From contig CAWJQC010000009.1 in assembly GCA_963844965.1 (NCBI GenBank), positions 62,037 through 126,036 on the forward strand: a DNA stretch of 64,000 nucleotides, given 5' to 3'. The notes below the pieces were generated by a model that was not told the origin of the DNA, searched no databases, and was given only the letters and a program-made list of their open reading frames with translations. The position numbers and the translations under genes were made by a program. Positions 19,654-63,103 of this stretch are shown here, in pieces (position 1 is the first letter of the stretch; each line of letters opens with the position of its first letter). This stretch comes from an uncultured bacterium (GTDB lineage Bacteria; Patescibacteriota; Minisyncoccia; UBA6257; 2-01-FULL-56-20).

Positions 19654-19688
19654 GACCCCGCTTAATTTGTGCCTTCTCTAATTCCAAG

Positions 19689-21613
19689 ATGTTCGTCTTC
19701 AAACGTTCGGAGGAAAATCCGATATTAATACCGCAAACCGAAAATTTATGGGAAGCTGAGGCAACCTTCAACGGTTGCCCTGTTCCCGACGGGAAAAAAA
19801 CTCATCTCCTCTACCGGGCGGTTTCCTCGGGGCAAATAGTGGACGGAAAAGAAATCAAAATATCTTCCATCGGCTGCGCCCTGTCCGATGACGGCGTGCA
19901 TTTCAAAAACCGCAGGCAGTTTATCAAGCCGGAATACGAATGGGAACGCTTCGGCTGCGAAATCTGCGCGTGACCAAGCTCGGCGACAAATATTATATTT
20001 TCTACACAGCACTTTCCCAGTATCCCTTCAGGGCGGATGGGATAAAGATAGGCGTAGCGATAACGAAGGACTTCAAGAAAATAGACGCGAAGTACCCGGT
20101 GACAACTTTCAATTCAAAAGCGATGGCGCTTTTCCCCGAAAAAATCGGCGGGAAGATCACGGCGGTGCTCACAGTGAACACCGATAAGCCACCGGCCAGA
20201 ATTTGCCTTGCGCAATTCGACAGAGAAGAACAAATCTGGTCCAGCGAATACTGGGAAGAATGGTATGGTAAGCTTGATTACCATGTATTGCCGCTCGCGC
20301 GGAAGTCAACCGACCACACCGAAGTCGGCGCGCCGCCCATTAAAACCAAATATGGATGGCTTCTGATTCTACCATATATTTCCAACTATTTCTTGCCGCC
20401 GCCCATATTCGGCATAGAGGCGGCGCTTCTGGACCTGAAAAATCCGAGAAACATAATTGCCGCAACGACCAGCGCGCTGCTCTACTCGCGCGAAGAATAC
20501 GAGAAATTCGGGAACGTGCCCAATGTCATCTTTCCGTCGGGAGCTCTTGTCAGTCACGGCAATCTCAACTTATATTATGGCGCGGCGGACACAACTTGCG
20601 CTTTAGCCACCGGAAAATTAAACGAGCTGCTGGAAGACCTGCGCTCGAAGCGGCCGCGCGCGGCGCGGCTCAAACGCTTTGCCGGCAACCCGATAATCAA
20701 ACCGAAACCGGAAAGCGCGTGGCAGTCAAAAGCAACTTTCAATCCCGGAGCCATATACGCCGGTGACAAAATACACCTTCTCTACAGAGCCATGGACAAA
20801 GACAACACTTCAACCTTCGGATACGCGGCAAGTTCGGATGGTTACACGATGGATTACCGGCTGCCGCAACCGGTTTACACGCCGCAAGCCGATTTTGAAA
20901 AAAAACTGGTTCCCGGAGCGAATTCCGGCTGCGAAGACCCGCGACTCACGCTCATCGATAAAACGATCTATGTGTGTTACACCGCTTTTGACGGCAAAAA
21001 TCCATGGCGTATAGCTCTGACCTCCATATCGTTGGACGATTTCCTGAGCAGGCGCTGGAACTGGAAACGCCCGGTTCTCATTTCTCCGCCGGGAATTGAC
21101 GACAAAGACGCCGTTCTATTTCCCAAAAAAATTGGCGGCAAATATGTGTTTCTGCACCGCCTTGGCGCGGACATCTGGATAGATTTTGTTGACTCACTGG
21201 AATTTGACGGCAAGAGATGGCTGCAGGGGAAAATAATATTGACGCCGCAATCCGGACCACAGGCCTCAAAAAAAATAGGCACCGGCGGGCCGCCCATAGA
21301 AACAAAGTATGGCTGGCTTCTCATATACCACGGCATATCCAGAGATGAGGACAATCATTACCACCTCCGCGCCGCTCTTTTAGATAAAAAGGATCCTGCC
21401 AAGATTATCGCGAGGACCCACGAACCCATTCTGGAAACCACGGAATATTATGAAAAAGGCGGTAATGTGAACAACGTTGTCTTCACCTGCGGTTCCGTCG
21501 TCGTCAACAACACTCTTTTTGTCTATTACGGCGGCGCGGATACGGTCGTCGGCGTCGCCACGGCGAATTTTGATGATTTTATGAAAAAATTATCCCGCGA
21601 GAAATATGCTTAG
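19689..21613 (+). CDS. tandem double GH130-domain protein; single-nucleotide frameshift near 19945
   Basis: ORF 19689..19973 ends ...EWERFGCEICA*. The next frame continues LRVTKLGDKYYIFYTA. Restoring one nt gives the GH130 motif FGCEDLRVT. Two complete GH130 modules follow, each with GGPPI(K/E)TKYGWLLI and YYGGADT. Confidence 0.7.
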
Positions 21614-23462: not shown

Positions 23463-24833
23463 TTATTTTTTACTCTCTATCATTTCTTCGACCTTTAGCT
23501 TGGCTTCTTCTAATAATTCTTTTGCTTTTTTGCGGGCGGCGTGAGATTCGCGAATAAGTTCGGCGATTTTTTGCTGGGTTGGTTTGGGCAAAATTGGAAT
23601 TACAATATTCTCAACATCTTGATCGGTAATAGTTGGATAAGATGTGCCCGTTGTTGGTTTTTCCATTTGCAACTTACCGATGACGGACCGCAAAACAACC
23701 TGTAGATATTCGCGCGTCGGAGACGGGACTTCAAAAACCGAGAAGGCGCCACTCGCAACAAAGTTTTTGCTCCAGCTATCGGGCACGATTGCGATGGCAC
23801 CACGAGTGGGTCGAACTTTTGAAATCAACAGCTCGCCCCCGACAATTTTAATCTTGGCATTTGCGGGCAACTCTTTACCCAAGATCAAGTTACTAGAAAT
23901 TGCTCCGTTTCCAACGTTAACGTCGCTAATCTCGATATATTCGTATTGGACATCGGGCGCAAGCCCTGCCCGCCTTGCTGTTCGCTTAGCAATTTTGCCA
24001 AGAGGTTTTACATTTTCCCCCAAGAGTTTTATTAACTTTTGATACTTCGGCTGGAAAAATTCGGCGTCAATGCGATTCGCTTTTTTTGCTTCGGACAAAT
24101 TAACCACGCTCCATAATTCATTTTCCGATTCAAAATTCTTAAGCCCCAATTCTTCCAAAAGTAAATTTTCTGCTTGAGAGTATAGGGCATTTGCTTGATC
24201 CAAAGTGTTCTTGGCCCCAATCACCACATTGTTGATATCTTTGACGAATGCTTCTGATGGAATCGGATAAATCAAATCATAAACATCCTGGACATTTAAT
24301 TTGGGTTGAGCGTTCCCGCTAATTCTCCTCATAATCTGAGCAAAACCAAACCTAGAATTTAGAAAGGTTAACAGAAATATTTTTTGCTCCGGCATCACTT
24401 TCGAGTTTTTGAACTTGATACCGATGTTATTCTCACTTATATTACAAACTTCAAATTCTTCTGGCACGGCAGATACAATACCAATCGTGTTGCCAACTTT
24501 AGACATTATCAAGTCGAAGGGAGAAAGCTGAGATTGCTTTAGTCGGTCATTGTCCTTTTTTGAAATATATATGAGCTCGGTTTTATCAAGAAAAAAGTTT
24601 TGCAAATCAGAAATTCTCAAAAAAGGAATACCACTACTTACATAGGCACTACTTTTTAACGAGGAGCCGAAAGGGCCACTAACAACAACAGCGCTTTCTT
24701 TTAAGGTTTGTGTTCCGCCAGAAAATGATTTTATTTCGTTTATTAATTTCAAATACTCCGGCTGATAATATTCCGCATCCAGCCGGTACGCACCCTCCAG
24801 TTGAGATTTTTGGATGATAGAATAACTAACCAT
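23463..24833 (-). CDS. hsdS: type I restriction-modification specificity subunit HsdS (two target-recognition domains)
   Basis: 456 aa. The conserved RLDAEYYQPEY and IDAEFFQPKYQ repeats flank two variable TRDs. Confidence 0.85.
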   Translation of the reverse strand: MVSYSIIQKSQLEGAYRLDAEYYQPEYLKLINEIKSFSGGTQTLKESAVVVSGPFGSSLKSSAYVSSGIPFLRISDLQNFFLDKTELIYISKKDNDRLKQSQLSPFDLIMSKVGNTIGIVSAVPEEFEVCNISENNIGIKFKNSKVMPEQKIFLLTFLNSRFGFAQIMRRISGNAQPKLNVQDVYDLIYPIPSEAFVKDINNVVIGAKNTLDQANALYSQAENLLLEELGLKNFESENELWSVVNLSEAKKANRIDAEFFQPKYQKLIKLLGENVKPLGKIAKRTARRAGLAPDVQYEYIEISDVNVGNGAISSNLILGKELPANAKIKIVGGELLISKVRPTRGAIAIVPDSWSKNFVASGAFSVFEVPSPTREYLQVVLRSVIGKLQMEKPTTGTSYPTITDQDVENIVIPILPKPTQQKIAELIRESHAARKKAKELLEEAKLKVEEMIESKK

Positions 24834-25487
24834 TTATTTTCTATTCTCTTTTTTGAATTTAACCAGCTTGGCCATTATTGAATCATTTAAAACTATAGCT
24901 TTTTCAATAAATCTTTCGCAAAGCCTTATCTCTTTTCGCATTGTTTCCAGCCACGTCTTTTTGGTTAAAGATTTTTTTGATATTGGCCTAAAACTCCTGT
25001 CATAACCAGAAACAGCGGTGTCATAATAAATACGGTGAGTTAACATCTTTCGCTTTACTAATATCTCATGCATAACTTTGTCTTCGTTGAATTTCTCTAG
25101 ATCTTTTTTAACCGAAGATTTTCTGACCATAGAATCTTCAGTAAGTTTATTGAATAAAGAAGCTTTTTCTGAAAATTGCAGATCAAGAGAGGCGTTTATA
25201 AGTTGGCAAATTTTTTCCCTATACGAAAACGCTCTCAACCAAAAATTTTCCAGGTGGTAGCCCAGGGATTCAAAATCAGTTTCCTGATGAATCGGTGATA
25301 GCCAGCCCTTGCCTGTCATAATTATTTTCGCAGTCCTTTCACAAAGCAGGTACGTCCTGGCTGCCCTACTATAAACGTCAATCAAATCGGATATTTCTTG
25401 ACGGACCTCATTGTGATAGGCTTTCGCTTTCTTGGGAAACAATCGCCTATCAAAATCAAAAAATGGTTGCCCTTTTGTTTTTTTCAT
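24834..25487 (-). CDS. hypothetical protein inserted between hsdM and hsdS; HEPN-like Rx4H motif (candidate Abi-type effector)
   Basis: 217 aa. KRKMLTHRIYYD contains R-x4-H. Its position between hsdM and hsdS is typical of embedded defense genes such as PrrC or Abi. No protein-level match is recognised. Confidence 0.4.
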   Translation of the reverse strand: MKKTKGQPFFDFDRRLFPKKAKAYHNEVRQEISDLIDVYSRAARTYLLCERTAKIIMTGKGWLSPIHQETDFESLGYHLENFWLRAFSYREKICQLINASLDLQFSEKASLFNKLTEDSMVRKSSVKKDLEKFNEDKVMHEILVKRKMLTHRIYYDTAVSGYDRSFRPISKKSLTKKTWLETMRKEIRLCERFIEKAIVLNDSIMAKLVKFKKENRK

Positions 25488-25498
25488 TATTTTTTATC

Positions 25499-26806
25499 TC
25501 AAAAATCGAATTTTTGTTCCTTGGTAAATTTCACGAATGCCTCGGCGATTTCGTCCAAGTCGTGGTCAAGCACCTTACGGCCTTTAGAGCCGTGCACATA
25601 ACTACCGTTCGCGTCTTTTTTATAAATATAGTCACCAGAATTATCTTTGCTACCTTTTTTAGAGACCGCCATGAAAATTGGATAATCCTTTTGCGGTTTG
25701 CCAGTGTCGCCGCCCCATTTTTGTAAAAAGAGCACGCTTGTTTTTGTGCCGGTATGCGGCTTGAACGTGTTACCGTGAAGCCCGACGACGGCAAGAATAC
25801 GCGCTTTTTCAAAAAGCCACTCACGGATATATTCCATGTTGGTGTTGTTAAGCACGCCTTGCGGCAGAACGATTGCCAAGCGGCCGCCGGGACGGAGCAT
25901 GTCCAATGCGCGTTCAATAAATAAAATGTGTCGCTCAACGTTATTGCGAAGCTTACCTCCTTCTTTTTTTGCCAGTTCGTACTGGCGCAGAAGTCCCTGC
26001 TCCGGATTTTCTCCGGCGAAGGGCGGATTCGTGAGCAATATATCAAAATTCAAATGCCGATAGGTCAGATGATTTTCCTTGTCGCTTTCGCTATTATCCA
26101 AGGTTTGCAACAGAGGTTTAAGCGCCACGCGTGCTTCTTCCGCCTCCGGACCAGTCCACTCCCGCGAATCCAACGAATCACGTTTGAAAATATGGTGCTT
26201 GCCATCGCCAGCGATAAGCATTAATGCCTGCGATATCCGGCGCATGTTGTCGTCAAAGTCAATGCCAAAAAGATATTTTGCGGCGTAGGATTTTTTCGCC
26301 GCTTCGGTTTTTGAAAAATTGTCCCAGACATGATACATCGCGTGAAGGAGGAATCCGCCAGAGCCGCATGCCGGATCTACCACGTATTCGTTTTCTTTCG
26401 GGCTGAGCATCTTTACGCACATTTTAATGACATGCCGCGGCGTGAAATACTGCCCCTTTTTTCCCTTAGAAACTTCGGTGATGAGATGCTCAAACGCTCC
26501 ATCCACAATCTCGTATTCGCCCTGCCCAAGCTCAAATAAGCGAATATTTTCCACGAACGGCACGCAGATGTTAAGGCGTGCGGCGGTAAGCTTGATTTTA
26601 TCCGATGGTTCGAATGTGTCGGGCCACTCCTTGACCGCTTCCTTAAAAAGCCCGTTTACAACCTCGTAGGTTTTTTCGGCGTCTTTATATCTTCTAAACA
26701 ACACCTCCCTACTTTCCCTTTCTCGGATAGCCATTTGCTCATCGTAGAGCTTGGCGTAAATAAGCTTGAAGATTCTCTTCAAAAACATTACCGCCGGAGC
26801 CGGCAA
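25499..26806 (-). CDS. hsdM: type I restriction-modification N6-adenine DNA methyltransferase HsdM
   Basis: The protein is 435 aa. It has the AdoMet motif VVDPACGSGGFL and the catalytic motif LLTNPPFAG. Confidence 0.9.
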   Translation of the reverse strand: MPAPAVMFLKRIFKLIYAKLYDEQMAIRERESREVLFRRYKDAEKTYEVVNGLFKEAVKEWPDTFEPSDKIKLTAARLNICVPFVENIRLFELGQGEYEIVDGAFEHLITEVSKGKKGQYFTPRHVIKMCVKMLSPKENEYVVDPACGSGGFLLHAMYHVWDNFSKTEAAKKSYAAKYLFGIDFDDNMRRISQALMLIAGDGKHHIFKRDSLDSREWTGPEAEEARVALKPLLQTLDNSESDKENHLTYRHLNFDILLTNPPFAGENPEQGLLRQYELAKKEGGKLRNNVERHILFIERALDMLRPGGRLAIVLPQGVLNNTNMEYIREWLFEKARILAVVGLHGNTFKPHTGTKTSVLFLQKWGGDTGKPQKDYPIFMAVSKKGSKDNSGDYIYKKDANGSYVHGSKGRKVLDHDLDEIAEAFVKFTKEQKFDF

Positions 26807-27452
26807 GCGCTAATTCTTCTATACGCTTGACGACTTTTATGAAGTCAAACTTCGGGGTCAAATCGCTCCACGTTTTCTTAATTTCAAACAAATCGTCCAC
26901 TGTTTGATCGGCCGTTGGAATCTCGCTCAATGATTCATATTCTTTCGGATAGGGACGATATAAAATTACTTTATCCGTGCCGTTAGACCAGATGCCGATC
27001 TCCGACCCCTCCGCGCTCAAATACGCTTTTAATTGTTCCTGCCCTTTCTTTTCGCTGGGCGCCTTAACTTCGACAATAATGTACGGTGTGATTTTATCTT
27101 TCTTGTAAACAACGATGTCCGCGGCCTTTGCGTGAATTTCTCGTCCAAAGTGGATGCTTTTTTCTGTTTCCATTCGCTCAAACGGATATTTGTAGTTGGT
27201 GTGAAGTTTATATAACCAGAGTTGGCGGACGATTTCCTCCGGCCTGCCTGCGTTTTTCTTGGCATCAAAAACTAAACGTTTTTTACCGCTTTTCAGGTCG
27301 GCGATGAAAAAACGGCTTGGTTCGTCTTCGGTAATTTCGAGCGCCGCGTTAAATTCTACGCCCTCAAACTCTTTGAGACCGTAGAGCAGCTCGGTATCCT
27401 TAAAAATCTTTCCAATTATTTCCTCTGCTTTGTTTTGTTTTTTGGTGGGCAT
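26739..27452 (-). CDS. stand-alone HsdR N-terminal-like PD-(D/E)xK nuclease domain protein (HSDR_N family)
   Basis: 237 aa. KAADIVVYKKDKITPYIIVEVKAPS...QLKAYLSAEGSEIGIWSNGTDKV matches the HSDR_N pattern D..v...iivEvK...Q...Y...G..tNG. It overlaps the hsdM start. No helicase-type HsdR is present in the window. Confidence 0.6.
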   Translation of the reverse strand: MPTKKQNKAEEIIGKIFKDTELLYGLKEFEGVEFNAALEITEDEPSRFFIADLKSGKKRLVFDAKKNAGRPEEIVRQLWLYKLHTNYKYPFERMETEKSIHFGREIHAKAADIVVYKKDKITPYIIVEVKAPSEKKGQEQLKAYLSAEGSEIGIWSNGTDKVILYRPYPKEYESLSEIPTADQTVDDLFEIKKTWSDLTPKFDFIKVVKRIEELALAGSGGNVFEENLQAYLRQALR

Positions 27453-27453
27453 A

Positions 27454-28095
27454 TTATCTTATCGGTTGCCAATAGTTATTTTTAAGCACCGAGATAATTT
27501 TTCCTTTGAGTTCCATCTCGTGGGTAAAAGGAATCAGCTCGTACTTTGGGTTTTCGGGCTTAAGGTACACGTATGGCGGTTTGTCGTCGGACATGAATCG
27601 CTTTATCGTGCCCTCGTCGCCGATTTGGGCATAGACTATTTCACCGGATACGAATTCTTTTTTTGTTTGAACTAGCACGGCGTCGCCGTCGTCAATACCC
27701 GCGTTTATCATCGAATCGCCGGAGACTTTGAGCATAAACACCTCTTCCGCCAATCTGGAAATCTCTTGAGAAACTGGCTGCCATTCACCGGAAATTTCTA
27801 TCGACTGAATCGGAGCCCCGGCGCTTGTTATGCCAAGAAAGGCCGCGAGGGGCGGTCTACCGAGCATCTCATACCCCAAAGGCAATATGGCTAATCCTCT
27901 AGCAGCTCCTTCTTTTCTTTGTATTATTTTATTTTTCTCAAGCTTATTGAGAAGATCTAAAACTGATTGATTTGAGGAAACGCCTAGACTTTCTCGCATT
28001 TCATCAAAAGTCGGTGGATGGCCATCGCTCTTAATATATGAGTAAATAACCTCTAAAAGCTGCTTTTGTCTTGGTGTTGTTATATTTTTCATCAC
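27454..28095 (-). CDS. lexA: LexA repressor (S24 peptidase)
   Basis: N-terminal winged HTH. An AG site lies in the linker (TSAGAP). The C-terminus has GDSMINAGIDDGDAVLV...GTIKRF, which is the Ser-Lys dyad. Its stop is 1 nt from the next gene's ATG. Confidence 0.85.
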   Translation of the reverse strand: MMKNITTPRQKQLLEVIYSYIKSDGHPPTFDEMRESLGVSSNQSVLDLLNKLEKNKIIQRKEGAARGLAILPLGYEMLGRPPLAAFLGITSAGAPIQSIEISGEWQPVSQEISRLAEEVFMLKVSGDSMINAGIDDGDAVLVQTKKEFVSGEIVYAQIGDEGTIKRFMSDDKPPYVYLKPENPKYELIPFTHEMELKGKIISVLKNNYWQPIR

Positions 28096-33676: not shown

Positions 33677-36200
33677 TTAAACCAATACCTTCCTAAGATA
33701 CTGTCCGGTGAAGCTCCCTGCCCTGCGGCTGATTTGCTCCGGCGTGCCTAGGGCGACAATCTTGCCGCCCTTCTCGCCGCCTTCGGGACCGAGATCAACC
33801 ACCCAGTCGGCGCATTTAATAACGTCCAAGTTATGTTCAATCACAACGACCGTGTTGCCGCGGTCAACAAGCTTTTGCAGAACCAAAAGCAGTTTATCCA
33901 CGTCGTCAAAATGTAGGCCGGTCGTCGGCTCGTCCAAAAGATAAAGGGTGCGGCGCGTGTCACGTTTACCGAGCTCCGCCGACAAGTTTCATCCGCTGTG
34001 CCTCGCCGCCGGACAATGTCGTTGCCGACTGGCCAAGCGTCAAGATAGTCCCAAGCCGACCTCTTCCAAAATCAAGAGCTTGTCGTGGAGCCACGGGATA
34101 TCATTGAAGAAATCCACCGCTTCTTCAATCGTCATCTTTAAAATGTCATAAATATTTTTCCCTTTATATTCACACTTCCAGCGTTTCGCGGTCAAACGTT
34201 TTCCCTTGCAAACATCGCAGGTGACGATAGACCGTCGGCAGGAAATGCATTTCAATCGCAATCGTGCCGTGCCCTTCGCAATTTTCACACCGCCCGCCCG
34301 GCACGTTGAAACTGAACCGGCCCGGTTTATATCCGCGGACTCGAGCATCCTCCGTGGCCGCAAAAGATCGCGGATATAAGTCCACGCGCCTACATAAGTC
34401 GCGGGATTTGAACGCGGCGTCCTGCCGATCGGCGACTGGTCAATGTTGATAACACGATTAACATATTCCACGCCCGAGATCGCTTTTATGCCACCCGCTT
34501 TGTAATTGCGCGTGATAAAATTTATCGGCCAGATTTTTATAAAGCACGTCGTATACCAAGCTGATTTACCCGAACCGGAAACGCCGGTGACCGCCGTAAA
34601 ACGCCGGAGCGGGATATCCACGTCAATATTTTTCAGGTTATTCGCGCGTCGCGCCACGAATCTTCAGGAATTCATGCGCTTCGGAGATATTTCCGCTTCG
34701 CGTTTCTGGAACTTCAATGAATTTTTTGCCGCGAAGATATTGCAGCGTGAGCGAATCTTCTTCTTTATCCTTTATGATGTCTGGCAATCGGCCTGTCGGC
34801 TACGATTTTTCCGCCATGAATGCCCGCCCCCGGACCGATATCCACCAAATAATCCGATTCGCTGATTGTTTCCTCGTCGTGCTCAACGACGATGATCGTA
34901 TTCCCCAAATCGCGCAGATTGTGCAGGGTCGCGATCAATTTGGCGTTGTCCCGCTGATGGAGACCGATTGTCGGCTCGTCCAAAATATAGAGCGTGCCTA
35001 CGAGCCGCGAGCCGATCTGCGACGCCAAGCCGAATTCTCTGCGCCTCGCCGCCAGACAGCGTGCCCGCTTTCCTGTCAAGCGTCAGATAATCCAAACCGA
35101 CGTCCATCATGAATTTCAGCCGGCTTTTGATCTCGCGAAGCGGTGCTTCGGCAACGGCCTTCCGCTTTCGCTTTTCAGACTTAAACCTCCGAAAAAATTC
35201 ATAGTGCTTCGTCGATGGAGAAGCGCAGTGACGGAGTTAATATTTTTGTCGTTTACGAGTACGTTCAAGCTTTCTTCCTTGAGCCGCTTGCCTAGGCAGA
35301 CCGGACAGATTTCCTCCGACCAAATATCCTTCGTTCCCAAACCGTGGCAGGCGGGACAAGCGCCGTACGGGCTATTGAACGAAAAAAGTCGCGGCTCAAT
35401 TTCCGGGAAAGAAAAGCCGTCGTGCGGACAGGTGAATTGGGCGGAAAGCGAGACTTCCTTGTCGGTGATAACCGTAACGACGTCGTTGCCGTATTTGAGC
35501 GCCGATTCGATCGCTTCGGCAAGACGCAAACGATTATCCTTATCGCTGAAATCTATTTCCGCCGGCAACCGGTCGACGACAAGCTCAATCGTGTGCTGCT
35601 TATAGCGGCTGAGTTCAATGCGATCGCGCAGTGATTGAAATTTGCCATCTATGCGCACTTCGGAAAAACCGGCGTTCAGAAAATCGTAAAGCATTTGGTA
35701 ATATTCCCCTTTCCTGCCACGCACGACCGGCGCCAAAATCACCAGATTTTTCCCTTCTTTGTCGTTTTTCGCGATATCGATCGCCACATCAACGATTTCC
35801 TCGTTCGTAAGTTTCTTGATTTCCCTGCCGCAGCGCGGGCAGAAAGGTTTGCCGACACGCGCGAAAAGAACACGGAGATAATCATAGATCTCGGTGATGG
35901 TTGCTACCGTGGAGCGTGGATTGGAGGAATGGCTTTTCTGGTCAATGGAAATCGCCGGCGAAAGTCCCTCAATCTCGTCCACGTCAGGTTTGTCCAGACG
36001 TCCCAAAAACTGCCGCGCGTAGGCGGAAAGCGACTCAATGTAGCGCCTTTGTCCTTCGGCGAAAATCGTGTCAAAGGCCAAACTGGACTTGCCGGACCCG
36101 AAAGACCGGTGAAAACTATCATTTTGTCGCGCGGGAGCTCAAGATTAATATTCTTAAGGTTGTGTTCCCGCGCACCTTTTATGATAATTTTGTCATGCAT
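33677..36200 (-). CDS. uvrA: excinuclease ABC subunit A (UvrA), split into at least 5 ORFs by single-nucleotide frameshifts
   Basis: The five ORFs (35904..36200, 35116..36081, 34765..35110, 34040..34657, 33677..33985) together give a colinear UvrA with Walker A, CxxC Zn modules, ABC signature and the second ATPase domain. At Walker A, gggtccgg reads GLSGPAS; adding one t restores [23 protein letters not shown], so this is a homopolymer indel. Confidence 0.85.
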
Positions 36201-36363: not shown

Positions 36364-36888
36364 ATGGGTAAGAACGAAAAAAACACGGACGGATCTTGCG
36401 GATGGAGTTATCACAGAAAACTGGGTCAAATCGCAAAATTTATGAAAATTCTGGGTGTCCTGCTCCTTCTGACTCTGAGAACTATCCCCGCATGGGCAGC
36501 GCTCGGTCAGTACGAGTCGTCAGTAAGTGTGGACCAGCAGTATCTGCGCAGCGAGGACCGCGTCCAGAACTTCCAGGGTTACAAAATTCACCAGCTAACG
36601 ACTGCGAACGGCACAATAATTCGAGAGTACGTCTCGCCGAAAGGTCTGGTCTTTGGAGTCGCCTGGCAGGCGCCCTTTATGCCCAACATGCAGCAGTTGT
36701 TGGGGTCATACGTTACGAACCTCCAGACAGCCTCGCGAACTCAGACCCAGGTCCGGCACCTCAGGGGACTGATCGTGAAAATGAATGATTTCGTGTTCGT
36801 CAGCGGCGGTCACATGCGGTTTTGGAAGGGAAGCGCCTACGTGCCCAGCCTAGTTCCCAACAACGTCTCCGTGGAGGTGGTGCGATGA
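36364..36888 (+). CDS. secreted hypothetical protein (DUF2844-like, recalled), partner of the downstream lipoprotein
   Basis: The probable start is MKILGVLLLLTLRTIPAWA, a signal peptide. The GC content is visibly higher than the flanks. Its stop overlaps the next ATG as ATGA. Confidence 0.45.
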   Translation: MGKNEKNTDGSCGWSYHRKLGQIAKFMKILGVLLLLTLRTIPAWAALGQYESSVSVDQQYLRSEDRVQNFQGYKIHQLTTANGTIIREYVSPKGLVFGVAWQAPFMPNMQQLLGSYVTNLQTASRTQTQVRHLRGLIVKMNDFVFVSGGHMRFWKGSAYVPSLVPNNVSVEVVR

Positions 36889-38224
36889 CTCTGGTAAATT
36901 GTTCGAAAGCAACATTAGCCTGCTTTCTTGCAGTAGTCACGGGACTGATCCTTTTGGATGGTTGCGGCAACAATAATAGCAACAGCAACATTATCAGTAC
37001 ACCTCCTCCGCCTACGAGTAATACAGCGCCAGTAACGGTCGGCTTTGGGGTCTTGGGACCGTCGGGTGGATATGTGAATGGGATTTGGACGACGGTGACC
37101 ATCTGTGCACCCAGCAGTACCACCAATTGCCAGACGGTCAATGATGTACTCGTGGACACAGGTTCCTTCGGCCTACGCGTTCTCAACTCAGCGCTCACCA
37201 CCGTTCCAGCGAGCTCGCTGGGAACGATTACGAGCAACGGCAGTCAGTTGCAGGAATGTGTCCAGTATGGGGACACAGCCTATACTTGGGGACCTGTGAT
37301 GCTGGCGGATGTTGGGATTGAGGGAGAGAAGGCCTCCTCAATTCCTATTCAGGTCATTGGAGGCAATTCATTCGATGTCCCTGGTGCTTGCACCGCAATC
37401 CCAATTAACCCCGGTCTTCCAAATGCGGGCAACGACGATACCTTAGACGCGCTTGGCGCCAACGGGATCCTGGGTGTCGGCGGTTACGCATGGGACTGCG
37501 GCCCTACTGCGAGAACGTTGTTGCTGGTGACCCCTATTACCTTTGTCCCAGCGGCCAATGCGAGCAAGTCGGGGTTCCACTCCAGTATCAAGTCACAAGC
37601 CCGGTCGCAGCGTTTTCCTCGTCGGATAACAATGGAGTGTTAATCACCCTGACGTCCATTTCGGCGAGCGGAGCTGCCGATGGGACGGTTTCTGGCTCGT
37701 TGATTTTTGGAATCGGAACCCAAACTGACAACGCCCTCGCTGGTAGCGCCACGGTTTATGGGGTCGACGAGTACGGCAACATTCCAGAGATTACCTACAA
37801 CGATTTCCAATACACCCCTCCCAACAACACGAACATCTTAGATACCGGATCGAATGCGATCTATTTTCTGGACGCCAACACCCTGGCCTCGGCTGGAATT
37901 ATCGAGTGCGCGGATGCCCCGGGTTTCTATTGTCCAAACAATACTATTCCGTTCACTACAACCTTTTCGGGCGCGAACGGCACATCGGGGGCGATAACGT
38001 TCAGCATTGCGGATGCGAATATATTGTTCGCAAGCGGCAACGCGGCGTTCAACGACTTGGGAGGCGATGGTGGCACCAGCCCTTCTAATGATAGTTTGGA
38101 CTTCGGATTGCCATTTTTCTTCGGTAAGAGCGTGTACGTCGGAATGATGCCGGGATTGTTCACGGGTGAGAGCGCTGCGCCAAGCGCCGCGACAAGCGCG
38201 ACGTACGGATATTACGCGTTTTAG
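36885..38224 (+). CDS. pepsin-like (A1-type) aspartic peptidase lipoprotein; frameshift near 37500
   Basis: Lipobox LILLDGC. The first catalytic motif is VLVDTGSFGLRV. The flap is ECVQYGDTAY (Tyr-Gly). The second motif is NILDTGSNAIYF, found in ORF 37490..38224. The two ORFs join colinearly. Confidence 0.55.
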
Positions 38225-45542: not shown

Positions 45543-46088
45543 CTATCTTTTCTTCGCAAAACGCTGATGTTTTTTCCGCTCGTGATCCAAAAGCCCGAGC
45601 TGGATGAGATTGTGCCATCTGCCTTTGTAAAATATCCTCTCGCGTTTCACTCCCTCAATCTTAAAACCTAACTTCCTACACATCGCCAAAGAGCGCGGGT
45701 TATATTCAAACACGTCGGCCTCAATGCGGTGAAGTTTAAGCTTACCGAATCCAAAATTCAAGACACTTATCATGACGTCTGTGCCATAACCCTTACTCCA
45801 ATATTTCTTGTCGCCTATAAAAATGCCAGCGACCATATTCTTATCCCGCAGATTCTTCTCTCTTAAACCAACGCTTCCGATATGAATTCCGTCTTTGGTA
45901 TCAATGGCAAAATGATGCGCGCTCTTATCCTTGCGCAAACCGTGAATCCACTTCTTTTCTTCTTTCATAGAAATGCTCTTGCGCGTGGTAAATTTGTTGA
46001 CGTCGGGGTCGTTAAGCCACCGCGCAAAACGCGGCGCGTCGCTCATTCGTATAGGCCTCAAAATTGTTTTTTGACCGCGAAGTATCAC
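45543..46088 (-). CDS. GNAT-family N-acetyltransferase (RimJ/RimL-like)
   Basis: MVAGIFIGDKKYWSKGYGTDVMISVLNFGFGKLKLHRIEADVFEYNPRSLAMCRKLGF. Confidence 0.8.
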   Translation of the reverse strand: MILRGQKTILRPIRMSDAPRFARWLNDPDVNKFTTRKSISMKEEKKWIHGLRKDKSAHHFAIDTKDGIHIGSVGLREKNLRDKNMVAGIFIGDKKYWSKGYGTDVMISVLNFGFGKLKLHRIEADVFEYNPRSLAMCRKLGFKIEGVKRERIFYKGRWHNLIQLGLLDHERKKHQRFAKKR

Positions 46089-46155
46089 TTTATTATCTTA
46101 CCAGATTTCTTTGATAATTCCTTTATCTCGTCCCTCAGAAGCGCCGCCAATGTGC
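46084..46155 (-). repeat. uvrB 3'-end remnant copy 3 (encodes LAALLRDEIKELSKKSGKIIK* out of context)
   Basis: It shares the 27-bp direct repeat atctcgtccctcagaagcgccgccaat with 46689..46715. Confidence 0.55.
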
Positions 46156-46160
46156 AAATA

Positions 46161-46190
46161 TTGACAAAACAAGAACCGCTATGGTAGAAT
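46161..46190 (+). promoter_or_regulatory. sigma70-like promoter TTGACA-18-TAGAAT, with GAGGAGG SD before the ATG at 46221
   Basis: TTGACAaaacaagaaccgctatggTAGAAT. Confidence 0.4.
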
Positions 46191-46220
46191 AACCGCAGTT
46201 GCAGATGAGGAGGAATTGAC

Positions 46221-46619
46221 ATGCTATTTCTGGTAAAAGTTGAATTATTTTATAAGCCGTGTGTTTGCCCAATTAGTGGCTCGACTTCAAGGACTATTGG
46301 CATGATAAACGCCGACTCGGAAGAAGATGCTGCGCGACAGTTAGGGTTGACTCGTTGGCCGGGATGGGAAAGAATTCTGGCCGCAAATAAGGACAACCGG
46401 GAAAAGAAAAAGGGGGAATATTTTTTCCTGAAGGAAGATACCGAAAAAATTGACGCCAACCCGCAGATGCTCTGGGAAAAGAGGGGCGGCAGGCCGAACC
46501 TGCGCGGCGTTACTTTCGAACTGGTCGAGATGATCACAAAGTTAGACCCGACAAAAACTTTCATGGCAGATCTGGCAGACATTCCACTTCCACTTCCGCC
46601 AGCATGGCGCTCATCGTGA
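46221..46619 (+). CDS. hypothetical protein carried between duplicated uvrB 3' ends
   Basis: 132-aa ORF with its own promoter and SD. No motif recognised. Confidence 0.4.
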   Translation: MLFLVKVELFYKPCVCPISGSTSRTIGMINADSEEDAARQLGLTRWPGWERILAANKDNREKKKGEYFFLKEDTEKIDANPQMLWEKRGGRPNLRGVTFELVEMITKLDPTKTFMADLADIPLPLPPAWRSS

Positions 46620-46630
46620 GCGCCGTTTTT

Positions 46631-46760
46631 TTATCCACGTCTGTCCACAAATTTCTTCTTTTCGCCAGAACTCTTGGACAATTCACGCATCTCGTCCCTC
46701 AGAAGCGCCGCCAATTCAAAATCTAAGCGCTTGGCCGCCTCGCGCGTCGTCGCTTCGCTC
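46631..46760 (-). repeat. uvrB 3'-end remnant copy 2 ([37 protein letters not shown])
   Basis: This is a second UVR-motif coding remnant. It shares gccgccaattcaaaatctaagcgctt with the intact uvrB end at 46889..46914. Confidence 0.55.
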
Positions 46761-46780
46761 CTCCTTAAAACCCAGCGGTT

Positions 46781-48926
46781 TTAACTCGCGCTTTGCGCTT
46801 TTCCGCCACGGGAAAACTCCCGTTTTCCCGACCCCTTTCCCGCGCGAGTTAGCAGTAATTTCAATGATTTTATCTCATCGCGAAGGATTGCCGCCAATTC
46901 AAAATCTAAGCGCTTTGCCGCTTCGCGCATTTCCTTTTCTTTTTCGGCAATCAGTTTCTGCAACGCGGTCTTGGACTTCGGTATCGGCTTCAGTTCCAAC
47001 GCCAGCATCTCATCAACATTCGGCAGAATATCGGAGATTTTTTTCTCTATCGTCTTCGGCGTAATATGGTGTTTTTTATTGTATTCAAACTGAAGTTTGC
47101 GCCGGCGTTCGGTTTCGGCCACCGCGCGTTTGATTGAACCGGTGATGTAATCGGCATAGATCAAAACTTCGCCGTTAACATTACGCGACGCTCTGCCAAT
47201 CGTCTGTATAAGCGACGTTTCACTTCGCAAAAATCCTTCTTTGTCGGCGTCCAAAATCGCCACAAGCGAGACCTCCGGCAGGTCCAACCCTTCGCGCAGG
47301 AGGTTGACGCCTACGAGCACATCAAATCCGCCGCGCACGCCGGAACCTTTGCGCAAATTAGTCAGAATCCTTATACGGTCAAGCGTTTTTACGTCGCTAT
47401 GCAAGTAAGTCACGTTGATTTTCTTTTCCTCCAGATAGGCCGCGAGGTCTTCCGCCATTCTTTTGGTTAGTGTGGTCACGAGAACTCGTTCCTTGTTCCT
47501 AACCCGTTCCTCCATGCGCGGGATTAAGTCATCAATCTGTCCGCGCGCCGGCCGCATGGTAATTTTGGGGTCAACCAAACCGGTGGGACGGATGATTTGC
47601 TCCACCGTTTGCGCGCTTTTTTTGCGCTCGTCAGCGGTCCGGCGTCGCCGAAGTATAAACGACCTGCCTGACTTTCGCTTCAAATTCCGGGAATTTCAGC
47701 GGCCTGTTATCTATCGCGGACGGCAGGCGAAAACCGTATTCAACCAGCGTCTTTTTGCGCGATGCGTCGCCCTCGTACATCCCTTGAATTTGCGGAACGG
47801 TCATGTGCGATTCATCAATAACCGTCAAAAAGTCCGGCGCGCCCGAATCGGTCCGCGGAAAGTAGTCCAAAAGAGTGTCCGGCGGCTCGCCCGCGGCGCG
47901 GCCCGACAAATGCCGCGAATAATTTTCAATCCCGTGGCAGTAGCCGACTTCCCGCATCATGGCGATGTCAAACTTCGTGCGCCGTTCAAGACGCTCGGCT
48001 TCAAGCAATTTGCCGCTCTTTTCAAAATATGCGAGCCGTCCCTTCAATTCTTCCAAAATCGCGGCAATTGCCCGTTCACGTTCCGGCGCCTCGGTTATGA
48101 AGTGCTTTGCCGGCGCTACGTAAATCTCGCGCAGTGTCGGCATTTTGTCCGGCTGAAACCCTACGACGGGGTCAACTTCGTAGATTTTTTTGATTATTTT
48201 TTCGCTGGCCGATCCGGATTTTACCGAAGAATGTTCTAGTTCAAAATTGTAAACTACTTCCTTGTCCGGCGGCATAATTTCCCAGTTATCGCCGCGCAAA
48301 CGGTATGTCCCGCGTTTCAGGTCGGAATTAGTCCGCGTAAACTGAAGCGAAACGAGTTTCCGCGCGAACTCTTCGCGTTTTATTTTGTCGCCGACTTTAA
48401 AGTGAAAAATGTTCTGTGCGTAAACTTCGGGCGCGCCCAAGCCATAGATACAGGAAACAGAAGCGACAACAATCACATCGCGCCGCGTTAGGAGCGCTGT
48501 TGTCGCCGCGTGGCGGAGCTTGTCTATCTCGTCGTTAATCAGCGCCTCCTTGTCTATGTAGGTGTCGCTAGACGGAATATACGCTTCCGGCTGGTAATAA
48601 TCGTAATAGGAAACGAAATAATTGACGGAATTTTTCGGAAAAAGTTCACGGAATTCGTTCGTAAGCTGCGCCGCCAGGGTTTTGTTGTGAGCGATAACGA
48701 GCGTCGGCTTCTGGATTTCCGCGATAACGTTCGCCACGGTAAATGTCTTACCGCTCCCCGTAACACCCAAAAGCGTCTGGTCTCTGTACCCTCTTTGCAG
48801 ACCGGAAACAAGCGACTTAATCGCCTTTGGCTGGTCGCCTGACGACTTGTATTTGGATATGATTTGAAAATTGTTCATTGAAAATTGTGCGGTCTGAAAC
48901 CCAAACGCCCCTCGGTCCGTAGCCAT
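46781..48926 (-). CDS. uvrB: excinuclease ABC subunit B (UvrB); frameshift near 47631-47683
   Basis: ORF 47631..48926 holds the N-terminal helicase domain ([15 protein letters not shown]). ORF 46781..47683 holds helicase C and the UVR motif ([16 protein letters not shown]). They are colinear. Confidence 0.9.
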
Positions 48927-61720: not shown

Positions 61721-62771
61721 TTAAATCTTCACAACTTCCTCCCACGGCAGACCCGGTTTGCCGAAATGGCCGTAAGCGGCCGTTTGCAAATATATCGGTC
61801 TGCGCAGATTCAACCGTTCAATGATCGCCGCTGGACGAAAATCAAAATTTTTCTTAACGACGACGGCCAGGCTCTCCCCTTTCTCGTTCACCGCCTCCAC
61901 CATCAACGGCTCTGCTCTGCCGATGGCGTAAGCAACCGAAATCATGCATTCCTTCGCCAAACCGTTCGCCACGACATTTTTCGCGGCGAACCGCGCCATA
62001 TAGGCCGCCGAGCGGTCAACTTTTGTCGGGTCTTTGCCGGAAAAACAGCCGCCGCCGTGCGGAATCAGACCGCCGTAGGTGTCAACCATGATTTTCCTGC
62101 CAGTTAAGCCGGTATCGGCGTCAAAGCCGCCCTGCACGAAGCGTCCGGTGGGATTCACCAGTATTTCAATGCCGGAAATGTCTCCAACCGCCGGCGCTAT
62201 AAGGCCGCGGGTAAGTTCGTTTTTTATAAAGTCATGGCTAACCGACTCGTCGTGTTGAGCACCTACCAAAATCGTTCTGAACCGGCCATTCTCAACCGTC
62301 ACCTGGGTTTTTCCGTCCGGCCGCAACCAGGAGAATTTTTTGTCGGTTCTGCGCAATTTTTCCAGACCGGATGCGAGCTTATGAACGAGCACGACCGCTT
62401 TAGGCAGAAACTCCGGCGTCTCCTCGGTCGCATAGCCATACATTATTCCCTGGTCGCCGGTCTCCGCCAGTGTCAACTCCCATAGCGATATCGGGTGATT
62501 GCTTCGCGATATTCACTATGAATCTCAAAGCGCTTTCATAGCCGATATCGCGATACAATTTTTTTGCGATTGCCTCGGCGTTGAAATCCGCCGCGGTTGT
62601 CACCTCGCCTCCCACAACGAGCAAGCCGTGCGAGCCGAAAGATTCCACGGCGACGCGGGATTTCGGGTCCTGCCGCAGGCATTCATCCAGCACGGCGTCC
62701 GAAATCTGATCGCAAACTTTGTCCGGATGGCCGGAAGTAACGCTTTCCACCGTATATGTTTTGGAAGTCAT
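61721..62771 (-). CDS. metK: S-adenosylmethionine synthetase; frameshift near 62400-62476
   Basis: The N-terminus MTSKTYTVESVTSGHPDKVCDQISDAVLD is in ORF 62400..62876. ORF 61721..62476 carries GDQGIMYGYA...GGGCFSGKDPTKVDRSAAY... Confidence 0.9.
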
Positions 62772-63103
62772 GTCTTTATAATGGATCAATAATAATTTAT
62801 AACCGGGCGCCTGGTCAAGAGATAATCCCCAGAGAACAAAACTCCTTCCGTAAAGGAAAGAGCTCTGTCTTGACACTTATCTCTCCCCTTACAGGGCTGG
62901 ATTTGGCACCTTGCCCGCGTTCTCTTACCTCACATAAGAAAACCGGATAGGTTGTCGCCGGATTATGGGCCGGTTCCCTCCTGCTCCGCAAAAAATAAAC
63001 ATTTAATGATTCGGAGCCGCACCCGGACTCTTGATAGGTTATTTACTTGTCAAAAACAATTATAGCAAAAAACCGACGGACTGCAAATGTCACGGCCTGT
63101 GGA

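Follow-up and report, generated by a model that had tools for sequence, protein, structure and literature searches.

The uvrB locus lies on the minus strand of the window, by which we mean the whole 64-kb stretch of DNA analysed; all coordinates are positions within it and all strands are relative to it. Between the uvrB gene body and a downstream GNAT acetyltransferase gene are three versions of the uvrB 3′ end (copies 1 to 3), separated by a proximal insertion (E2) and a distal insertion (E1). Below, L denotes the terminal coding segment that precedes an insertion and R the second version of that segment beyond it.

47631..48926, minus strand: N-terminal part of uvrB, a 431-aa ORF (Pfam UvrB_inter, ResIII, DEAD)
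46781..47683, minus strand: C-terminal part of uvrB, a 300-aa ORF (Pfam Helicase_C, UvrB, UVR)
46872..46928, minus strand: copy 1, the L copy of E2, with the UVR motif now used by uvrB
46849..46871, minus strand: E2 spacer between the L copy and X, AAAATCATTGAAATTACTGCTAA, AT-rich and non-conserved
46842..46848, minus strand: X, the 5′ strand of closing stem P1, CTCGCGC, inverse complement of the copy 2 start GCGCGAG
46746..46841, minus strand: structured core of E2, 96 nt (covariance model R1: 134 bits, E = 3e-35)
46631..46745, minus strand: copy 2, displaced uvrB 3′ end and R copy of E2
46152..46630, no strand assigned: E1 cargo, the ORF132 gene with promoter and terminator, bounded by a 51-nt repeat
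46221..46619, plus strand: ORF132, 132 aa, of a small uncharacterised family (promoter 46161–46190, terminator 46604–46626)
46085..46151, minus strand: copy 3, encoding LAALLRDEIKELSKKSGKIIK*, the native uvrB 3′ end truncated on its 5′ side
45543..46088, minus strand: GNAT acetyltransferase gene (Pfam Acetyltransf_3, E = 5.7e-27)

Three copies of the uvrB 3′ end

Direct repeats link the three copies in a staircase. Copies 1 and 2 share a 57-nt repeat (46872–46928 and 46689–46745; 84% identity, 183 nt apart) that holds an exact 27-nt block (46890–46916 = 46707–46733), and copies 2 and 3 share a 51-nt repeat (46665–46715 and 46101–46151; 84% identity, 564 nt apart) with an exact 27-nt block of its own (46689–46715 = 46125–46151), the rest of copy 3 having diverged. 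These two repeats were the sole significant blastn matches within the 64-kb window (E = 1e-11 and 3e-9), where the next best match was a 13-mer at E = 0.7. Copy 2 starts 0 nt from the 3′ end of the E2 core, lies in frame after the uvrB stop and has its own stop codon (46633–46631); from 46715 downstream it is also the L copy of E1. The TGA stop of copy 3 (46087–46085) and the GTG start codon of the GNAT gene (46088–46086) overlap in the string GTGA, and because of this overlap we take copy 3 to be the original uvrB end, to which the GNAT gene was once translationally coupled.

The tails of copies 2 and 3 resemble the C-termini of genuine UvrB relatives, for example ...LRDEIKELSKKINKQHQS and ...ALLRDEIKELYKKVGKG, and therefore are not low-complexity chance matches, the outcome against which a prior sequence-only reading of this DNA had cautioned. 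Differences between copies 1 and 2 are mostly synonymous (pS 0.55, pN 0.07), indicating that diverged uvrB lineages, and not local slippage, are the source of the copies. The three 3′-end copies and their direct repeats were thus found where that reading had placed them, as was ORF132, with its own promoter and Shine-Dalgarno sequence, between copies 2 and 3. Its description of uvrB as intact did not hold: relative to its relatives the gene carries a +1-nt frameshift near 47633, which is why the 431-aa ORF terminates at ...YTSATPDR*, and the last ~26 codons of the C-terminal ORF are read-through into the inserted element. The resulting UvrB tail is atypical among 120 relatives, and the same kind was found only in P0003/L081, which carries the same element as the window uvrB. 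Several genes in the assembly are split by apparent frameshifts, so small details of the contig may be erroneous.

The proximal insertion carries a conserved structured core

E2 is a 183-bp unit with no ORF and represents one copy of a structured element family. Its core runs, in order, GGGAAAGGGGUC, P2, GUGGCGGAAAAG, P3, CGAGUU, P4, AAGGAG, P5 and GACGAC. Between the window and the related uvrB locus L081, the core is 86% identical, compared with 70% for uvrB coding DNA and 48% for the spacer. P1 covaries across all 12 loci of the family, with 10 of its 11 pairs altered on both sides and 17 G.U compared with 7 A.C cells. One AU-to-GC compensation is seen in P2 and another in P4, and the P3 and P5 hairpins have unrelated sequences. 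In the structure alignment 91.5% of cells are paired, compared with 35–52% when the partners are slid, and the copy at L093 folds into a clean five-way junction (z = -6.5).

Searches of catalogued families gave no counterpart. Nothing in Rfam 15 reached the gathering score against the element; at E <= 10 the sole overlap was ALIL, at 15.6 bits against a 50-bit threshold, and for four other loci no match fell on the element at E <= 1. Comparison of the element with phage, plasmid and viral contigs likewise returned no match.

The same element occurs at many gene ends

A 21-mer scan yielded 11 element loci, and a six-frame peptide search added L101 and L102. The element (83–161 nt, ORF-less) is present at 12 independent loci of related uncultured bacteria, with covariance model R1 scores of 73–134 bits and a core that is near-identical in the 11 other loci despite their different gene contexts. 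Its targets comprise at least 10 gene ends (uvrB, lepA, secA, pgk, tatD-like, fusA, dinB, GH57-like, HMA and tRNA-Ala, the last at the T-arm), and it was also found in a terminator. It lies in sense orientation at 3′ ends, a tRNA 3′ end among them, and antisense at 5′ ends. Only one copy was found per contig, the 64-kb window included, and the element was rarely encountered in the databases searched. We infer mobility solely from this distribution.

The family shares one layout: gene body, L, a spacer of 0–45 nt, X, core and R, in which X is the inverse complement of the first 7–16 nt of the segment. R begins 0 nt past the core in 10 of 11 loci, and its first bases are GC in five of the 11, or six if the lepA junction is moved by 2 nt. 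The aligned duplications span 34–107 nt (18 nt at the tRNA locus). At L101, in secA, the repeat is a perfect 55 nt that extends 8 nt beyond the stop codon, and just TGTGC separates L from the core; L086, L093, L085 and L102 have a mismatch at repeat position 3–4. At L097 the putative X lies inside duplicated terminator sequence and at L102 X matches L and not R, so the snap-back rule proposed below is not clean everywhere.

At all loci other than secA, with its perfect duplication, L and R differ mostly at synonymous sites (pooled pS 0.61, pN 0.073, ratio 0.12); in the lepA pair, 18 nucleotide differences leave the encoded 33-aa peptide unchanged. Mismatches show a modest gradient, from 13% in the 5′ halves to 24% in the 3′ halves.

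Further arrangements were seen in individual sequences. L088 holds the remnant of a second core, P0122–P0124 are read-through of two to three tandem elements at tRNA genes, and in L082 a strong promoter precedes a distant core relative, much as in an ordinary small-RNA gene.

The distal insertion is of a different kind

E1 is a ~0.5-kb segment made up of a self-contained 132-aa gene and a foreign-type uvrB tail. It has neither core nor X; the covariance model detected no structured core in it with filters off. ORF132 is served by a TTGACA-18-TAGAAT promoter (11 of 12 positions, TG-extended) and a GAGGAGG Shine-Dalgarno sequence, and its terminator consists of a hairpin and a T-run. Five remote homologues were found (E = 2.5e-8 to 3.4e-4), and the family conserves G27, A31, A37, L41, W46, G48, W49, F69, D78 and P81. 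ORF132 had no match in Pfam, PHROG, PADLOC or PDB and no fold match. We considered a homing endonuclease and rejected it, as ORF132 has no GIY-YIG, HNH, LAGLIDADG or PD-(D/E)XK domain and no nuclease fold.

The arrangement of E1 recalls the mobile ORFs of fungal mitochondria (Allomyces atp6, Glomus mORFs), which bring a foreign C-terminal segment and leave the native C-terminus downstream. In both, a gene body is followed by a foreign-type C-terminal segment, an ORF and the displaced native segment, giving a hybrid functional gene. The fungal mORFs, however, can be recognised as GIY-YIG or LAGLIDADG endonucleases and mostly share the orientation of the gene or are fused to it, whereas ORF132 runs convergently from a promoter of its own and shows neither a nuclease domain nor a nuclease fold. 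The mechanism by which E1 was inserted may be unrelated to that of E2.

A probable record of two successive insertions at uvrB

Relatives differ at this site. L098, L099 and L082, whose UvrB is ~81% identical, have a single uvrB end with no insert, and L081/L092 have the proximal step E2 only. The staircase is probably the record of two successive, independent insertions into the last ~20–40 codons of uvrB, of which E1 was the first and E2 the second; each would have displaced the resident 3′ end downstream and left a working replacement upstream.

The core of the sequence-only reading, repeated insertion that regenerates the uvrB end, therefore stands in the form of two successive insertions, with copy 3 marked as native by the GTGA overlap, and the comparison with relatives that it had proposed revealed a polymorphic site. 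Its further claims fared less well. The two steps are not alike, E1 being gene cargo without a core and E2 a structured element, nor does the related uvrB locus conserve what was read as the same 9-nt crossover point. As the element is found at at least 10 other gene ends, its specificity is not for uvrB, and a dedicated uvrB hotspot is not supported. The expected integrase/att system found no support either: a Pfam scan of ~50 ORFs of the window (the ~40 largest and those around the locus) showed no recombinase, transposase or reverse transcriptase.

Discussion

We are highly confident on two points: E2 is a non-coding, structured and mobile element that duplicates its target, and the staircase arose by serial insertion. 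As an overall explanation, serial insertion by a mobile, target-duplicating structured element is the best that we have, with a probability of about 0.65. Serial insertion also appears to recur elsewhere, at L088 and in P0122–P0124.

On this explanation, insertion of the element would generate a long, variable target duplication, and the gene would stay usable only where that duplication spans a gene boundary, so that the element looks 'gene-end restoring'. The intermediate could be RNA or single-stranded DNA with snap-back copying, or else a trans-acting recombinase could be involved. In the former case a single-stranded intermediate, most simply RNA, would be copied from a nick at the target, and X would arise during that step as the primer strand snaps back and is copied. 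Spread between diverged lineages would then follow by ordinary homologous recombination, the left-hand crossover falling in the gene body and the right-hand one within R. Such crossovers would make L and R orthologous versions with synonymous differences, and the spacer the donor's non-coding flank.

A retroposition-like mechanism is a tentative proposal. Slightly more tentative is its specific form, in which the ~100-nt core would be a bacterial SINE-like retroposon: a reverse transcriptase provided in trans would copy its small structured RNA at a nick in the target. Snap-back onto the primer strand would create the target-derived closing stem, and a second nick 35–150 nt away would give the long duplication that preserves gene ends. 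SINEs and retroposed small RNAs are mobilised in trans by target-primed reverse transcription; to our knowledge, SINEs are not known in bacteria. The likenesses are a small, structured, ORF-less unit, target duplications of variable length immediately flanking it, a precise 3′ junction with 2-nt microhomology and a possible promoter-bearing 'master' in L082. Unlike a SINE, the element lacks an A-rich or other simple tail at its 3′ end, makes longer duplications (34–107 nt), has a snap-back inverted target copy and is low in copy number; no reverse transcriptase was found in the window, which is a small part of the genome.

An integrase offers another account, which we consider unlikely. Both steps would be site-specific integration with an attP that carries a surrogate gene end, the small units being non-autonomous, CIME-like elements mobilised in trans, the core a recombinase-binding arm and P1 a means of presenting the target copy as the crossover site. 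Known elements that regenerate the target end include tRNA-gene islands, phage 21/e14 in icd and CIMEs left by ICEs. As in the IGE/CIME class, the flanking repeats run from the junction to the gene end in the manner of tRNA- or icd-type att sites, the upstream copy completes the gene (here uvrB), the downstream repeat is a displaced fragment, and tandem accretion gives a staircase. The function of the target gene is preserved, and one passage in the literature describes integrative genetic elements as usually integrating in a way that preserves it (PMC7192596). A tRNA-Ala T-arm is among the targets and tandem arrays occur at tRNA genes, 10 of 11 loci have a precise junction where the core ends on its 3′ side, and the perfect 55-nt repeat of L101 is equally expected of attL/attR when donor and recipient belong to the same species. 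However, a unit of the E2 type is ~130–250 bp with neither integrase nor cargo, and no integrase was found in or near any unit or among the window ORFs scanned. One conserved core is joined to at least 10 unrelated target sequences, and we know of no tyrosine or serine integrase that serves many unrelated targets with one core. Neither an identity block nor a crossover core stands at a constant position relative to the core, and a target-derived X closes it to form a stem. Each of the 12 loci has a 'mini' form, with no full-size parent seen between L and core. Of the features that mark the IGE/CIME class, the repeats and gene restoration are present and the single target is absent; no recombinase was found among the window ORFs scanned, and ORF132 shows no recombinase domain or fold.

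Less probable again is an origin with no dedicated machinery, in which DNA of a related lineage entered by transformation and was joined by homologous or homology-facilitated illegitimate recombination, or in which small circles excised between L and R recombined in Campbell fashion; the core would be a conserved, possibly useful RNA module that hitch-hikes. L and R do look like synonymously diverged orthologues, and the repeats of the window, L092 and L095 contain exact blocks of 25–30 nt, the minimal size for RecA-type recombination being ~25–30 nt. E1 resembles a piece of another genome, a uvrB tail with a convergent neighbour gene, and the core relative of L082 stands behind a strong promoter like a small-RNA gene. 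Against this, illegitimate joins would hardly fall at the identical core base in 10 of 11 independent contexts, the perfect 55-nt duplication of L101 includes non-coding bases, and the account leaves unexplained both X, a target-derived inverted copy beside the core in each new gene, and the spread to at least 10 unrelated genes.

Local tandem duplication or replication slippage followed by drift, or an assembly artefact joining strain alleles, is very improbable: the repeats are direct, close and in frame, and several apparent frameshifts suggest an imperfect assembly, but the copies differ by multi-step synonymous changes (CGC versus AGG for Arg) at a pN/pS of ~0.1, unlike decaying local duplicates, enclose unique structured or gene-bearing DNA, recur with the same architecture and core in 12 assemblies from JGI, ENA and NCBI projects, and share 27-nt blocks that are short against the k-mer sizes assumed for such assemblies.

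Other known classes were also compared with the element. MITEs and palindromic elements in genes (Rickettsia RPE, Correia, ERIC, and the IS200/IS605-derived PATEs and REPs) are likewise short, ORF-less and hairpin-rich, and lie within or beside coding sequence without loss of the gene. MITE terminal inverted repeats are element-specific and conserved, their target duplications are short and of fixed length, PATEs make none, and the MITE, RPE, Correia, ERIC and PATE families are multi-copy per genome. A MITE was rejected because each locus has its own P1 arms, which match the target there, and because the duplications are variable and 34–107 nt long; an IS200/IS605-derived PATE or REP because long target duplications are present and no Y1_Tnp was found in the window. 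In its rarity and its single copy per contig, the element is unlike typical high-copy non-autonomous elements. We also rejected a diversity-generating retroelement, as the repeat differences are of all types and mostly synonymous and no reverse transcriptase was found among the window ORFs scanned, and an integron cassette or attC site, as the stem arms are target-derived and do not follow the RYYYAAC...GTTRRRY consensus and those ORFs include no integrase.

The element combines a target-derived stem, long variable duplications and no protein, an anatomy shared by no catalogued class of bacterial element. It offers a concrete way to test whether bacteria harbour non-coding retroposons mobilised in trans or else a recombinase that is directed to its target by a presented copy of it. 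In metagenome annotations it produces C-terminal extensions that are not real, gene ends that are split or duplicated, and small false ORFs. Its units also give portable homology for recombination across diverged lineages. In the window, the 3′ end of uvrB has been rewritten twice, and the tail that UvrB now has comes from the element. Should the element be mobile, as its distribution suggests, DNA can insert into essential genes of very small genomes (uvrB, lepA, secA, fusA, pgk) without inactivating them. If the SINE-like reading is true, this would be the first non-autonomous, target-primed retroposon described in bacteria, and its hosts would be the genome-reduced Patescibacteria.

Three copies of the uvrB 3′ end

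In the window, uvrB (Pfam domains UvrB_inter, Helicase_C, UvrB and UVR) lies on the minus strand, and its 3′ end occurs three times, as the sequence-only reading had claimed from direct repeats and translated UVR motifs:

46872–46928, minus strand: copy 1, the UVR motif now used by uvrB
46631–46745, minus strand: copy 2, a complete second UVR end, in frame, directly after the uvrB stop
46085–46151, minus strand: copy 3, a third UVR end, 5′-truncated, reading LAALLRDEIKELSKKSGKIIK to its stop codon

The copies are linked by two direct repeats, repeat A (57 nt, 84% identity, 183-nt spacing) and repeat B (51 nt, 84% identity, 564-nt spacing), each with a 27-nt exact block inside. When the region was compared with the whole window by blastn, these two repeats were the only significant matches (E = 1e-11 and 3e-9).

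Past copy 1 the uvrB reading frame adds 26 atypical codons before it stops at 46783–46781. Among the 120 closest UvrB C-termini in a collection of 5.8 billion proteins, the native tails of relatives (...LRDEIKELSKKINKQHQS, ...LRDEIKELSKKVRVV, ...ALLRDEIKELYKKVGKG) resemble copies 2 and 3, and the tail that uvrB now has in the window is non-native. The copies differ chiefly at synonymous sites (copy 1 versus copy 2, pS 0.55 and pN 0.07; copy 2 versus copy 3, pS 0.29 and pN 0.14), including multi-step changes such as Arg CGC versus AGG. This excess of pS over pN argues that they are orthologous sequences that diverged under purifying selection rather than a decaying local duplicate, and it bears out the view of the remnants as genuine uvrB ends.

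The C-terminus previously taken as intact is not so: besides the non-native tail, a +1-nt frameshift (CCGG) near 47633 splits uvrB relative to relatives, and in L092, a relative's contig, the frame across this site is unbroken. We discounted the idea that split uvrB is common in the clade, as the lengths below 500 aa of all top 120 UvrB matches reflect short contigs, error-prone assemblies and a C-terminal query. Split or fragmentary genes in the window comprise uvrB (47631–47683), a uvrA fragment (35116–36081), DUF3443 (36822–38224), metK (61721–62876) and GH130 (18485–21613); they may reflect an indel-prone assembly or widespread pseudogenisation and are not to be over-read. Elsewhere, the window holds a type I restriction-modification cluster (23463–27452) adjoined by lexA:

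23463–24833: hsdS
24834–25487: Cthe_2314-like HEPN gene, between hsdS and hsdM
25499–26806: hsdM
26739–27452: HSDR_N fragment
27454–28095: lexA

Order of the insertions and variation among relatives

The TGA of copy 3 (46087–46085) overlaps the GTG start of the downstream acetyltransferase (GNAT) gene (46088–46086) as GTGA, a stop/start overlap typical of always-adjacent genes, and copy 3 is therefore the original uvrB end. Copy 3 was replaced by copy 2 on the arrival of E1, the distal ORF132 segment, and copy 2 was replaced by copy 1 on the arrival of E2, the proximal 183-bp unit. Because the copy 3 stop that still overlaps the GNAT start has been displaced, translational coupling of GNAT to uvrB has been lost. 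The divergently oriented promoter region of ORF132 now precedes GNAT.

The arrangement is polymorphic among relatives. Three contigs with UvrB about 80% identical (L098, L099 and L082) have one uninterrupted uvrB end with the next gene directly after it, while in L081/L092 (UvrB 81% identical) the E2 step alone is present, and the genes after it are unrelated. None of 80 more distant genomes scanned with UvrB (52–61% identical relatives) carried another UVR copy immediately behind uvrB. A fixed 9-nt crossover (GCCGCCAAT) common to both steps was rejected, since L081/L092 do not keep it and have their exact block in another place. Downstream of uvrB and the R copy, L092 also carries two tandem paralogous small genes (76–880; 114 and ~100 aa; ...KCDAEGCP..PHGHF...), whose upstream promoter regions are nearly identical; this local tandem duplication has no relation to ORF132.

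The proximal unit contains a conserved folded core

Between copies 1 and 2 the window and L081 are 86% conserved, compared with 70% for uvrB coding DNA; the two uvrB tails traverse this stretch in different frames, and one hairpin carries a compensatory change (GGGAAAAC/GUUUUCCC versus GGGGAAAC/GUUUCCCC). Together these observations indicate that the conserved object is a nucleic acid and not a protein. Scanning a metagenome collection with the most conserved 21-mer returned 15 loci, 11 of them with the same element, and a six-frame peptide search added two further contexts, L101 and L102. A covariance model, R1, built on nine copies, scored all found copies at 73–134 bits and detected no further core in the window or any other contig examined. 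The core is thus single-copy in the window and in each contig examined, which is not the pattern of a high-copy REP or MITE.

The core is 83–161 nt long and reads, in order, GGGAAAGGGGUC, P2 (GGGAAAAC GGGA GUUUUCCC), GUGGCGGAAAAG, P3, CGAGUU, P4 (AAAACC GCUG GGUUUU), AAGGAG, P5 and GACGAC, the whole closed by stem P1. P3 is a hairpin of variable sequence, absent in some copies, and P5 is a variable hairpin. In a 12-sequence alignment, standard pairs occupy 91.5% of pair cells, falling to 35–52% when partners are slid by 1–3 columns. Both sides change in 10 of 11 P1 pairs, and one AU-to-GC compensation is seen in each of P2 and P4. G.U exceeds A.C in P1 (17 versus 7 cells), which argues that the folding strand is the strand as written, uvrB-sense in the window. 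Short guide-like matches of P3 or P5 to the target, judged by eye, occur in two uvrB loci and not in lepA, fusA or dinB, and were treated as chance.

A distant relative of the core (19 bits) lies at 1790–1975 of L082, the Wolfebacteria contig JACPIO010000005.1, with the same hairpin order, a CGCUGG loop in P4 and a perfect 12-bp closing stem (GAGCAGGCAATT/AATTGCCTGCTC). It stands directly downstream of a strong TTGTAG-N17-TATAAT promoter and could be a small-RNA gene with transcription of its own, or else a ‘master’ copy.

A common anatomy at the ends of many genes

On the element strand every locus has the order gene body, L, spacer, X, core, R and flank, where L and R represent the same terminal host-gene segment in two versions. 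X forms the 5′ strand of P1, and its sequence is the inverse complement of the duplicated segment's first 7–16 nt.

Host loci of the element
uvrB: 3′ end, sense (window, L081/L092)
lepA: 3′ end, sense (L087/L095)
secA: 3′ end, sense (L101)
pgk: 3′ end, sense (L085)
tatD-like gene: 3′ end, sense (L096)
fusA: 5′ end, antisense (L086)
dinB: 5′ end, antisense (L093)
GH57-like gene: 5′ end, antisense (L083)
HMA-domain gene: 5′ end, antisense (L102)
tRNA-Ala: T-arm / 3′ end (L084/L088)
Intrinsic terminator after mnmA: intergenic (L097)

R starts exactly at the core 3′ end in 10 of 11 loci. The spacer is 0–45 nt (~100 nt at the tRNA locus) and the duplication 34–107 nt (18 nt aligned at the tRNA locus). 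L–R homology ends at a start or stop codon except in L101, where a perfect 55-nt repeat extends 8 nt beyond the secA stop codon and only TGTGC separates L from the core; this insertion looks recent. Elsewhere L and R share 69–88% identity, and the pooled differences are overwhelmingly synonymous (pS 0.61, pN 0.073, ratio 0.12). At lepA, for example, identical 33-aa peptides are encoded despite 18 nucleotide differences. The mismatch rate roughly doubles from the proximal half of the repeats (13%) to the distal half (24%).

Serial insertion is not peculiar to the window. In L088 the 3′-end remnant of a second core (GAGTCCCGCATAGCGGGACGACGAGG; 395–440, minus strand) lies after the tRNA-Ala terminator, between the tRNA gene and the full element, pointing to nested or serial insertion there. 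Similarly, three database proteins (P0122–P0124) are spurious ORFs that translate the core antisense two or three times, in different frames and ~52 aa apart, adjoining antisense-tRNA translations, read-throughs that indicate tandem arrays at tRNA genes. At the fusA locus, long near-perfect palindromes on either side (L086, 18–98 and 407–535) match miRNA-precursor models on both strands in a lenient Rfam scan and are probably another hairpin repeat family.

The distal insertion carries a gene

The repeat logic of E1 is the same as that of E2, with 27 identical nt, then divergence, and an R that starts abruptly; E1 has neither a core, for which R1 was used, nor an X. Its gene has the expression signals noted earlier, together with a terminator:

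46221–46619, plus strand: ORF132, with an extended −10 promoter close to consensus, a Shine-Dalgarno sequence and an intrinsic terminator

These canonical signals and its homologues identify ORF132 as a real gene. The five remote homologues (93–113 aa; E = 2.5e-8 to 3.4e-4) share the invariant pattern G..A..A..L..W.GW...F...D..P. ORF132 matched no Pfam, PHROG or PADLOC family and no PDB sequence, and its AF2 model (pLDDT 70, pTM 0.61) had no significant structural neighbour. It is thus not a recognisable homing endonuclease or recombinase, and we set aside a role as nuclease or recombinase. E1 may be a cargo-bearing element, or recombination may have imported it from a donor genome, as a uvrB tail together with its convergent neighbour.

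Possible routes of insertion

E2 is a conserved, folded, ORF-less unit with a precise 3′ junction, and its family combines a target-derived closing stem, long and variable target duplications, presence/absence polymorphism and orthologue-like L/R pairs. We propose that insertion would proceed via a single-stranded intermediate, most simply the element RNA, copied from a nick at the base where the duplication is to begin. R begins with GC in 5 of 11 loci (6 of 11 with the lepA junction shifted by 2 nt), suggesting a 2-nt microhomology with the ...GACGAC(GC) 3′ end. Once copying had run to the compact template's 5′ end, the new strand would snap back on the adjacent primer strand and copy 7–16 nt, so that an inverse complement of the duplicated segment's first bases, namely X, would come to lie beside the core 5′ end. 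The duplication would come from a second nick 35–150 nt away. We put the probability of this RNA and reverse-transcription version at roughly 0.3.

Its main rival is a trans-acting recombinase that would have the core as its platform, with the P1 stem displaying a copy of the target to it, making the unit a miniature integrative element. Such an enzyme would explain why the junction is precise, why a tRNA gene is among the targets and why arrays occur, but it would have to be one whose target can be reset freely, and no recombinase gene was found within or beside any unit. What survives of the original proposal is serial insertion that regenerates the gene end; an integrase att hotspot specific to uvrB does not. 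Purely homology-driven capture leaves both the invariant junction and X unexplained. The codon pattern and the recurrence in twelve independent assemblies contradict both slippage and assembly artefact.

Nothing in Rfam 15 matched the element at gathering score or lenient E-values, ARAGORN found no tRNA or tmRNA in the window, and a full-text literature search returned no description of the element. A phage or plasmid origin was rejected, since none of the IMG/VR contigs, INPHARED phages or PLSDB plasmids matched. The copy differences are not adenine-specific and no RT was found among about 50 ORFs scanned in the window, contrary to a DGR TR/VR pair, and the stem arms depart from the R″/R′ consensus of an integron attC, with no intI found in the window. 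By its logic, regenerating the end of the target gene, the E2 unit is like integrative elements, and by its variable flanking duplications it is like a retroposed small RNA; by their defining tests it fell outside IGE/CIME, MITE, PATE/REP, integron cassettes, DGRs and every Rfam family. Conservatively, we class it as a non-autonomous mobile element; there is a substantial, if less than even, chance that it belongs to a class as yet undescribed in bacteria.

In the proposed insertion model, the compact genomes of these bacteria would shape which insertions are seen. A complete gene would remain on the L side only if the duplication straddles a gene boundary, so selection would favour insertions with a ‘gene-end restoring’ appearance. 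Because homology flanks an insertion on both sides, ordinary homologous recombination could then carry it into diverged relatives. A crossover on the right, within R or the near-identical core, would account for the orthologue-like divergence and the 5′-to-3′ mismatch gradient, and also for the unalignable ‘spacer’, which would be the donor’s non-coding part of the original duplication.
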